Source: a virus (taxonomy: Duplodnaviria > Heunggongvirae > Uroviricota > Caudoviricetes). From it: a stretch of 42,485 bases of DNA. Shown piece after piece: positions 24,139 to 24,482 of this stretch. The DNA is taken from the IMG/VR virus record IMGVR_UViG_2667527777_000006. One strand, given 5' to 3'. Position 1 is the first letter of the stretch; every line of letters begins with the position of its first letter. The notes below the pieces were generated by a model, which saw only the letters and a program-made list of their open reading frames with translations, made no database searches and had not been told where the DNA came from. The translations under genes were made by a program, and so were the position numbers.

Positions 24139-24233
24139 ATGTACTCCAATGAAGAAACCAGCGAAATAGCTGCCTTCATTCGTAGTAAACCTTTTTCATC
24201 AACGCAGTAATGGATTCTTTGAAGAGTCGCAAT

Positions 24234-24312
24234 CAATACGACTCACTAATGGGGAGGCATGTCCAACGCGTTGGACGAGTTGCCTACTTGATTTAGGTGA
24301 CACTTTAGAAGG
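24234..24312 (+). promoter_or_regulatory. Tandem near-consensus phage single-subunit RNAP promoter sequences: T7-like (24234-24257) and SP6-like (24291-24312), same orientation, separated by a 14-bp palindrome
   Basis: caATACGACTCACTAatGGGGAGG versus T7 consensus TAATACGACTCACTATAGGGAGA; ATTTAGGTGACACTtTAGAAGG versus SP6 consensus ATTTAGGTGACACTATAGAAG; palindrome TCCAACGCGTTGGA at 24262-24275. Confidence 0.6.
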
Positions 24313-24359
24313 ACAGAATGCCTTCCTCACTCAAATAACATCAATTAAGGAGGTTCAAC

Positions 24360-24482
24360 ATGCTTCGTTCCAAAAGTCAGTTGACTGTAATTATTACTAC
24401 GTCACCTTATGCCGAAGACCTTTTCCGCTTCACTTTGAGCCTGATTCACTTCTACCTGACCGGCTCGCCTCTATCCTTCTGA
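24360..24482 (+). CDS. Small ORF (40 aa) with strong Shine-Dalgarno, downstream of the T7/SP6-like sequences
   Basis: AAGGAGG at 24347-24353, ATG at 24360; translation MLRSKSQLTVIITTSPYAEDLFRFTLSLIHFYLTGSPLSF; overlaps the Rz1 3' end on the other strand. Confidence 0.35.
   Translation: MLRSKSQLTVIITTSPYAEDLFRFTLSLIHFYLTGSPLSF

Follow-up and report, generated by a model that had tools for sequence, protein, structure and literature searches.

Promoter-like sequences for the RNA polymerases of virulent phages in a small mobile cassette of Shigella phage SfIV and its relatives

Copies of T7- and SP6-type promoters in phage SfIV

The DNA analyzed here (IMG/VR record IMGVR_UViG_2667527777_000006; 42,485 nucleotides, referred to below as the window) corresponds to Shigella phage SfIV, and its positions 24139 to 24600 (462 bp) are 100% identical to SfIV and to one Escherichia coli chromosome. 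This segment holds a cassette which, in the window and its relatives, is made up of one to four putative promoters for the single-subunit RNA polymerases of virulent Autographiviridae, a hairpin, a ribosome-binding site, and a predicted gene of 37 to 40 amino acids. At least seven classes of Autographiviridae promoters are found in this one slot, all oriented alike, with at least three host genera represented. These comparisons lend good support to promoter mimicry, and it is very probable that the cassette promoters function with their cognate polymerases. Judged by its sequence and surroundings, the region is a natural, mobile cassette of temperate phages at the junction of the lysis and packaging genes. 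No earlier description of heterologous phage-polymerase promoters in prophages was found in the full-text literature, which was searched with exact promoter strings as well and covered few papers from subscription journals.

The T7-like element, a predicted promoter copy of the T7 group (Studiervirinae type), extends from -17 to +6 at positions 24234 to 24256 (CAATACGACTCACTAATGGGGAG) on the plus strand, with a predicted start at G 24251. From -17 to -1, it matches the T7 promoter at 14 of 17 positions, the mismatches being at -17, -2, and -1, and it contains an exact T7 14-mer (AATACGACTCACTA). In the recognition region (-17 to -5), the window has CAATACGACTCAC compared with the T7 consensus TAATACGACTCAC (12/13), and in the melting region (-4 to -1) and at the start, it has TAAT followed by GGGG, where the consensus has TATA followed by GGG. 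Every one of these deviations is present in natural T7 promoters, namely, -17C in phi1.1A and phi4c; -2A in phi1.5, 1.6, 3.8, 4c, and 4.3; and -1T in phi2.5. A T7 pattern search of the window returned one site, compared with 0.04 expected in shuffled sequences. In addition, the whole 42.5-kb window was scored with matrices built from each phage's own promoters (17 annotated promoters for T7 and 10 for SP6), and the T7-like site reached 26.2 bits, which lies within the range of the 17 natural T7 promoters (22.0 to 38.7 bits), with the next best site in the window at 14.3 bits. The match of 14 of 17 positions reported in the initial annotation was confirmed by this recount. Among 90 E. coli and Shigella copies of the cassette, representing 49 distinct sequences, the T7-like element is kept in all 90 and is variable at -11, -6, and +3. 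The majority form is CAATACAACTCACTAATGGAGAGG, which has -11A and a GGAGAG start in common with T7 phiOL.

The SP6-like element, a predicted promoter copy of the SP6 group (Molineuxvirinae type), lies on the same strand at 24291 to 24313 (-17 to +6, ATTTAGGTGACACTTTAGAAGGA), with a predicted start at G 24308. Over 24291 to 24311 (ATTTAGGTGACACTTTAGAAG), it is identical to the SP6 consensus ATTTAGGTGACACTATAGAAG at 20 of 21 positions, as the initial annotation had counted, and the sole mismatch is an A-to-T change at -3 (24305). The SP6 pattern was matched in none of 100 shuffled sequences, and the site scores 32.1 bits, which is within the range of the 10 natural SP6 promoters (26.3 to 34.5 bits), the next best window site being 13.6 bits. 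Position -3 is A in all listed sites of SP6 (10 sites) and K1E (12 sites), and nothing was found in the literature on the effect of an A-to-T change at -3 on an SP6-type promoter. The SP6-like core GACACTATAGAAGG is kept across the 90 copies, and the specificity bases (-12 to -9) vary: 71 copies have ACTGG, 11 have AATGG, and 8 have AGGTG, which is the SP6 form present in the window. The ACTGG variant, which is the commonest in E. coli, reads ATTTACTGGACACTATAGAAGGA, the exact consensus of the K1E/K1-5-type phages (Vectrevirus); it scores 36.7 bits, compared with a natural K1E range of 20.6 to 37.0, and matches 6 to 9 sites per genome in these phages. For the AATGG variant, no cognate phage was found, and only weaker K1E-type matches were obtained. 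When a K1E promoter with its own K1E flanks was used as a query, 607 E. coli genomes were matched at one or two places each (median, one), none of which was annotated. A spot check in an O157:H7 genome placed the match 152 nucleotides upstream of the HNH gene and before iss/bor, that is, in the cassette, and the weakest of the matches was a chance one (21/23) within a plasmid gene. In one E. coli variant, 27 of 28 nucleotides agree with a particular K1E promoter, flanks included, which is compatible with direct capture of the sequence.

Promoter classes and distribution among relatives

In temperate phages of Klebsiella, a homologous cassette is located after Rz1 and before the packaging genes, on the opposite strand, despite differing neighbor genes, and each of these cassettes has two to four promoter-like elements. 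Their T7-group element occurs in at least five specificity variants, of which AATTAGGGCCCACTATAGAGACC fits the annotated K11 promoters (28.8 bits, with a K11 range of 25.5 to 38.7). Another Klebsiella element, (T/C)AATAGTGGCGAGTATAGAA, is the consensus of 13 sites in the Molineuxvirinae phage Kp7, and the best prophage copy matches it at 22 of 23 positions (36.3 bits). An element reading TAATGTTACAGGAGTA followed by GG, which is not in the window, is the strong promoter of KP34 (Drulisvirus). This promoter has been defined as the 16-mer T(A/G)ATGTTACAGGAGTA followed by G, and it is sufficient for the KP34 polymerase in vitro when inserted in pUC19 (PMC6834552). The match to it is 16/16 in two cassettes (L106 and L111) and 14/16 to 15/16 in other Klebsiella cassettes. 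Approximately 225 of the 247 records matched in a search with the KP34 element are Klebsiella phages, and the KP34-type genomes listed match the element at 21/22 positions, at one or two places each. A prophage of Pseudocitrobacter faecalis carries GACTTAACTATCACTATAGGG, which is identical to three promoters of phage K1F. A fourth Klebsiella element, (A/T)AAGTTACACAA(T/G)AGAA (for example, AAGTTACACAATAGAA), which is present in loci L101 (1360 to 1400), L104 to L106, and L108 to L133, is similar to the SP6 core GTGACACTATAGAA; a phage group that uses this element was not found, and the element may point to an unsampled podovirus group.

The promoter classes match the host group, with T7, SP6, and K1E types in Escherichia and Shigella and K11, Kp7, and KP34 types in Klebsiella. 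Their variation is concentrated in the specificity bases (-12 to -8), with the core kept, and all of the promoters point the same way, toward a Shine-Dalgarno sequence and an open reading frame (ORF) of 37 to 40 codons.

The module is present in 642 of 5,426 complete E. coli genomes (12%), including O157:H7, and each carrier has it at one or two places (median, one); these copies are 80% to 98% identical to the region in the window, mostly 80% to 90%. Strains isolated from humans, cattle, deer, a swan, a baboon, and a kangaroo rat are among its E. coli carriers. A further 91 viral contigs in IMG/VR also contain the module, and the region is thus conserved in related prophages, a point that the initial annotation had raised for checking. 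Illumina shotgun reads of host DNA, obtained with no cloning step, were the basis of the SfIV assembly, and the paper describing this genome is silent on these promoter sequences (PMC3851460).

The cassette adjoins unrelated lysis and packaging modules, namely, the HNH/P27 type, the lambda/DLP12 type with bor, and those of Klebsiella phages lacking HNH. Most of the E. coli copies lie beside a lambda/DLP12-type lysis cassette and the serum resistance gene iss/bor, as seen in E. coli SCU-118, phage vB_EcoS-640R1, and O157:H7 strain ECP19-598. In lambda/DLP12-type contexts, the 3' end of Rz1 survives only as a nonfunctional remnant attached to the cassette, and the conserved 3' flank may belong to the cassette, as a 3' untranslated region or an antisense regulator, rather than to Rz1. 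Some phages that have the same Rz1 end lack the cassette. A pattern scan of genome contigs anchored on the Rz1 end recovered three loci, one of which has the cassette, and a scan of genome contigs with a degenerate pattern from the 3' end of the ORF found nothing. In the closest E. coli relatives (97.9% identity; PapM-32-1), an extra 64-codon gene (1194 to 1388 of the PapM-32-1 locus L002) is located between HNH and the cassette, and because of this inserted gene, the PapM-32-1 match begins at query base 35. In terms of moron features, the cassette is an autonomous, oppositely oriented, and variably present insert, for which neither the host-type promoter nor the terminator of a moron was predicted. 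Only the promoters resemble podovirus DNA, and no flanking podovirus genes or other podovirus DNA was found beside them. The suggestion in the initial annotation that the region is a fragment acquired from podoviruses is thus partly right: it fits the promoters, in keeping with the 27/28 match to K1E, and not the surrounding DNA.

Hairpins, leader, and small open reading frame

A conserved hairpin occupies 24258 to 24279 (plus strand), between the two promoters and upstream of the SP6-type one, corresponding to +8 to +29 of the predicted T7-type transcript. T7 late mRNAs have a 5' stem-loop, which the position of the cassette stem recalls. The 14-mer palindrome noticed initially (TCCAACGCGTTGGA, 24262 to 24275) is indeed perfect and extends to a perfect 16-mer (GTCCAACGCGTTGGAC, 24261 to 24276). 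The 9-bp stem that includes the palindrome is paired in 90% of cells, compared with 20% to 40% for slid controls. Two of the stem pairs show compensatory double changes, from C-G to U-A and from A-U to C-G, and the covariation score was reached by none of 500 shuffles, in what is a small sample. Most copies have the stem form CTTGTCCAA-CACG-TTGGACAAG, others have CTTGTCTCA...TGAGACAAG, and the window has CATGTCCAACGCGTTGGACGAG; the hairpin is present in the Klebsiella cassettes too. It may serve as a stabilizer, a processing site, or a DNA structure.

Upstream of the T7-like promoter, at 24213 to 24228, there is also a small hairpin, GATTCT-TTGA-AGAGTC, with 6 bp including one T-G pair. Its closing G-C pair is changed to A-T on both sides in most relatives and to an A-C mismatch in the PapM-32-1 type, and the Klebsiella cassettes have a perfect 20-nucleotide palindrome (TTGTCTCTTATAAGAGACAA) at the equivalent place. 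The first promoter is thereby flanked by hairpins with common TTGTC...GACAA ends.

The leader (24314 to 24359) is nearly invariant, with TTAAGGAGGTT kept in 88 of the 90 copies. It contains the Shine-Dalgarno sequence AAGGAGG at 24347 to 24353, six bases 5' of the ATG of a 40-codon ORF at 24360 to 24482 (MLRSKSQLTVIITTSPYAEDLFRFTLSLIHFYLTGSPLSF), the presumed effector; the initial report of these two features following the promoters proved correct. In the Klebsiella and Pseudocitrobacter cassettes, the Shine-Dalgarno sequence is AAGGAGG or AAGGAGA or has a GGAGG core. Within the leader, the stretch at 24314 to 24340 (AATGCCTTCCTCACTCAAATAAC) includes CCTCACT.AA, which is faintly like the T3 promoter core CCCTCACTAAAG, lacks the G start, and may be a decayed third promoter or a chance resemblance. 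Another observation concerns 24251 to 24330, where the predicted T7-type transcript begins with ten bases (GGGGAGGCAU) that are able to pair with AUGCCUUCCU, located just 3' of the SP6-type start; such pairing would enclose the hairpin and the SP6-type promoter. The z-score of this long-range fold is only -1.4, and in the common E. coli variant the bases pair less strongly.

The ORF is open in all 90 E. coli and Shigella copies. Its last 20 residues (DLFRFTLSLIHFYLTGSPLSF) are constant in this set, a constancy that is partly forced by the search anchor. In the unanchored 3' part, there are five synonymous changes and one nonsynonymous change in the ORF frame, compared with one and four, respectively, in the overlapping Rz1 frame. 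Across the slot, at least five unrelated sequence families of 37 to 40 amino acids are found, each with a Shine-Dalgarno sequence and one hydrophobic stretch, and those of Klebsiella and Pseudocitrobacter begin with MLKISLL, MLEVLNSLAPF, MSHIEIIQLIDSYVLL, MHKPLIKLF, and MTHEKIVKLATAY. The slot ORFs stop at, or within three bases of, a common point before ATCCCCGCC, and substitutions within a family are conservative, such as I/V and L/F. The initial description of the product as a small hydrophobic peptide stands with respect to the hydrophobic stretch, and the peptide of the window is only moderately hydrophobic, in fact the least hydrophobic of the set. A protein search over 5.8 billion sequences returned 18 clusters, all unnamed or "uncharacterized," and the ORF is called by some gene callers under the latter name. 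A tblastn search of phage records with a Klebsiella peptide gave few matches because the peptide families are mutually unrelated. The sequence features are read as those of a real gene for a small protein, which is likely translated and probably inserted in a membrane, and for which only the length, the hydrophobicity, and, in one family, the C terminus would matter.

In the window, the cassette is on the plus strand, opposite to the late genes from holin to terminase. On the minus strand, the holin (25772 to 25446), lysin (25442 to 24966), and Rz (24982 to 24590) genes are followed by Rz1 (o-spanin), whose 3' end and the conserved flank that accompanies the cassette span 24430 to 24563, with the Rz1 stop at 24430; the boundary of homology is near 24563. 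The ORF overlaps the final 53 nucleotides of Rz1 on the opposite strand, and its placement between Rz1 and HNH in the initial annotation is therefore not strictly accurate. The left neighbor, at the start of the packaging module, is an HNH endonuclease gene on the minus strand (23788 to 24138; Pfam HNH, E = 4e-16), followed by a Terminase_4 small subunit gene and then the gene for the large terminase subunit, also on the minus strand, and the SfIV record terminates at cos, between the HNH and small terminase subunit genes. The longest ORF in the window is 635 amino acids, and a single-subunit RNA polymerase needs approximately 880; with no ORF longer than 635 amino acids, the prophage is therefore without a single-subunit polymerase of its own, as had been claimed. 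An Rfam scan of 23600 to 24900 at permissive thresholds gave chance-level matches only. Divergent from the holin and on the same strand as the cassette, a 255-amino-acid ORF (26134 to 26901) has no match in Pfam or PADLOC; relatives hold other genes at this spot, such as one for a KAP-family NTPase, and it looks like a variable hot spot for accessory or defense genes. A polymerase reading through from the cassette would reach this ORF in sense, 1.65 kb downstream.

Possible role of the cassette and alternative explanations

From the features described above, we infer a toxin and defense role for the cassette, in which the polymerase of an invader would transcribe it in vivo and the peptide would be translated and toxic. 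No sigma-70 promoter was predicted on either strand between 24000 and 24800, and the cassette runs antisense to the late transcript. It is thus expected to stay silent both in the lysogen, where the host polymerase would have no promoter, and while the phage itself is growing. Early in infection, a podovirus produces its own polymerase, which would transcribe the cassette from a matching promoter. The small protein would then be translated and block the infection, either by damaging or depolarizing the membrane or by prematurely releasing the lysozyme that the invader makes early. Abortive infection or exclusion of this kind would protect sister lysogens and hence the prophage, and the exchange of promoter modules over evolution would let the cassette track the podoviruses preying on the host genus. 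The chain as a whole, from a cassette that is silent until a podovirus supplies a polymerase to a small membrane protein by which the infection is aborted or excluded, is in our judgment slightly favored. A modular "promoter trap," in which an exchangeable array of Autographiviridae promoters makes the invader transcribe a small membrane-active protein so that infection is aborted, with sensing by DNA in cis instead of by a sensor protein and with specificity updated by swaps of 20-nucleotide modules, is a proposition for which belief and doubt are about evenly balanced. Of the sensor or decoy cassette suggested in the initial annotation, which ranked it as its most speculative option, the sensor or trigger part appears favored by the comparative evidence, and the decoy part is unsupported.

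Several observations weigh against this interpretation. Because T7-type phages degrade host DNA, a chromosomal cassette would have limited time in which to act. The promoters of the window are off consensus in the melting region (AT for TA at -2/-1 in the T7-like element and A to T at -3 in the SP6-like element), and some E. coli variants are changed further at -6 (A to G) or -5 (C to G). No phage was found that uses the commonest E. coli T7-like variant (-11A) as its general consensus, and the best matches of this variant are single promoters of the phiOL/phiOR type at genome ends. No intrinsic terminator was predicted between 24000 and 24800, which leaves the cassette unbounded by one. As for the product, the first half of the E. 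coli ORF has 24 nonsynonymous and 3 synonymous changes, showing no purifying selection, and six peptide variants matched no family in Pfam, PHROGs, NCBIfam, or PADLOC. The best 15-amino-acid hydropathy window is moderate (1.1 to 1.5) for the E. coli/SfIV peptide and approximately 1.6 to 2.5 for the Klebsiella peptides, all lower than the values of 2.6 to 3.1 obtained for Hok and TisB. In addition, no defense phenotype for such an element was found in the literature, and PADLOC has no family for it.

Alternative explanations differ in how they account for the promoters. Chance recombination between temperate phages and podoviruses in coinfected cells might have left neutral fragments that hitchhike beside a small, host-expressed moron gene; the 27/28 match to a specific K1E promoter with its flanks is as expected for capture, and the possibly weakening substitutions in several copies and the first half of the ORF without purifying selection also fit this scenario. 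It is nevertheless unlikely, given at least seven specificities in one slot and one orientation in at least three genera, each matching the podoviruses of the host group and none accompanied by other podovirus DNA, with the variation in the specificity bases (-12 to -8) and the core kept, no predicted sigma-70 promoter, and a cassette that persists in 12% of complete E. coli genomes. A marginally less probable explanation is a role in the biology of the prophage itself, through RNA structures of the late transcript, protein-binding sites, or a peptide that times lysis, the likeness to podovirus promoters being incidental. The cassette does lie in the path of the late operon, by HNH and terminase and overlapping Rz1, its covarying hairpins could act on either strand, and small membrane proteins are common as lysis regulators; however, an incidental likeness cannot account for matches of 20 to 23 nucleotides to seven heterologous promoter classes, the ORF runs antisense to the late transcript, and the cassette moves among unrelated lysis and packaging modules and is missing from some phages that share the Rz1 end.

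Mimicry of replication or packaging signals, by which prophage DNA would be copied, or packaged and transduced, by the machinery of an invading podovirus, is more doubtful still. The tandem T7 promoters phi1.1A and phi1.1B are said to be the primary origin, and phiOL and phiOR reportedly take part in replication and concatemer processing, in work attributed to Chung and Hinkle in 1990 and to Zhang and Studier in 2004. The cassette similarly has two tandem promoters 57 bp apart with a hairpin adjoining a promoter, it is located approximately 500 bp from the cos and packaging genes of the prophage, and the T7-like variants of both E. coli and Klebsiella best match genome-end promoters of the phiOL/phiOR type. 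The 61 nucleotides downstream, however, are 59% A+T, compared with 73% after T7 phi1.1B, and thus differ from the T7 primary origin; the promoters that the KP34-, Kp7-, and K1E-type elements match are general late or middle ones, not origin-specific ones; and the invariant strong Shine-Dalgarno sequence and the always-open hydrophobic ORF of 37 to 40 codons would be left unexplained. Contamination by a cloning vector or an engineered insert with a T7/SP6 polylinker, which the initial annotation had considered, has a negligible probability. T7 and SP6 are the promoter pair of pGEM-type vectors, and the 13-mer CCAACGCGTTGGA (24262 to 24274) is presumably also present in the pGEM-5Zf/pGEM-T polylinker (BstXI/MluI sites), between the T7 and SP6 promoters, a curious coincidence that could lead contamination screens astray. 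The alignment to the polylinker is short and gapped, though, and the promoters are in tandem in the cassette and convergent in the vector. A vector origin was rejected on the basis of the 642 complete E. coli genomes, from wild and clinical strains with ordinary divergence, the sequencing of SfIV without cloning, and the K1E, K11, K1F, Kp7, and KP34 promoters that relatives hold instead.

The proposed trap can be compared with several known systems. The promoter copies share with the single-subunit polymerase promoters of Autographiviridae (T7, SP6, K1E/K1-5, K11, K1F, and KP34) the same 17 to 23 nucleotides, scores within each phage's range, purine starts, and variable bases at the known polymerase specificity positions (-12 to -8), but they are found in a siphovirus-type temperate prophage without such a polymerase, and they array the promoters of mutually exclusive polymerases in tandem before one gene. 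Like the lambda bor (E. coli iss) moron, the cassette places a small, independent gene between Rz/Rz1 and the packaging genes, opposite to late transcription. bor is active in the lysogen and has a promoter of the host type, whereas the cassette has no predicted sigma-70 promoter or terminator and has promoters for foreign polymerases instead. With type I toxins (Hok, TisB, Ldr, and Ibs, including the exclusion of T4 by hok/sok), it shares a product of 37 to 40 amino acids (<60) with one hydrophobic stretch, a strong ribosome-binding site, a mobile element as its carrier, and, by analogy, the proposed death of the infected cell as the outcome. No antisense RNA antitoxin was identified in the cassette by the Rfam scan or the sigma-70 scans of both strands. 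Control would come from the lack of a usable promoter instead of an unstable antitoxin, and there is no family similarity. At the right end of T7-group genomes, phiOR and gene 19.5 (T7, 39229 to 39538; K11, 40503 to 40816) similarly place a promoter before a hydrophobic protein, here of 49 amino acids, with spacing and a leader that differ from those of the cassette. Homology of the cassette peptide to T7 gp19.5 was rejected, as one BLASTP comparison gave an E value of 0.04 over 12 residues and the other gave no match.

The principle has precedents as well. In the "triggered suicide" of Lactococcus, reportedly described by Djordjevic, O'Sullivan, Walker, Conkling, and Klaenhammer in the Journal of Bacteriology in 1997, a phage-inducible promoter was fused to a lethal gene. 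There, as proposed for the cassette, whose product we infer to be lethal, a promoter that fires only with the transcription machinery of the invader drives a lethal product; that construct was synthetic and used a phage-activator-dependent promoter, whereas the cassette is natural and consists of direct promoter copies with several specificities stacked. The integrated virophage mavirus is said to be activated by the giant virus CroV, as reported by Fischer and Hackl in Nature in 2016, and the satellites P4, PICI, and PLE are switched on by factors of their helper phages. In these cases too, a resident element has regulatory sequences read only by the invader's apparatus, and, once activated, this element is harmful to the invader and protective of the host population. 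Those elements replicate and are packaged at the invader's expense, whereas the cassette appears to express one tiny gene, and the resident is an unrelated temperate phage. The parts of the cassette are thus of known kinds (phage-polymerase promoters, a moron at the bor position, and a type I toxin-like peptide); their combination is not known from the literature covered, and its function is a putative one.

If the proposed role is correct, the cassette would sense phage infection without a sensor protein, and its trigger would be the essential and highly specific polymerase of the invader, so that a phage could get away only if it altered its polymerase and, along with it, every one of its own promoters. 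This would explain part of the diversification of promoter specificity in T7- and SP6-like phages, and the cassette would be a record of the podoviruses that a lineage has faced. It would also be a very small defense element, approximately 250 bp long and with a gene of 40 codons, which is missed by standard gene callers and defense finders. The carriers, which include approximately 12% of complete E. coli genomes, with O157:H7 among them, and Klebsiella prophages, are hosts for which Autographiviridae are favored as therapeutic phages, and the cassette could predict failure of phage therapy. Strains bearing the cassette may respond badly to expression systems based on T7 or SP6 polymerase, and the arrays are ready-made natural sets of orthogonal promoters. 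Even if the defense role is wrong, seven heterologous promoter classes maintained in one slot of temperate phages need explaining.

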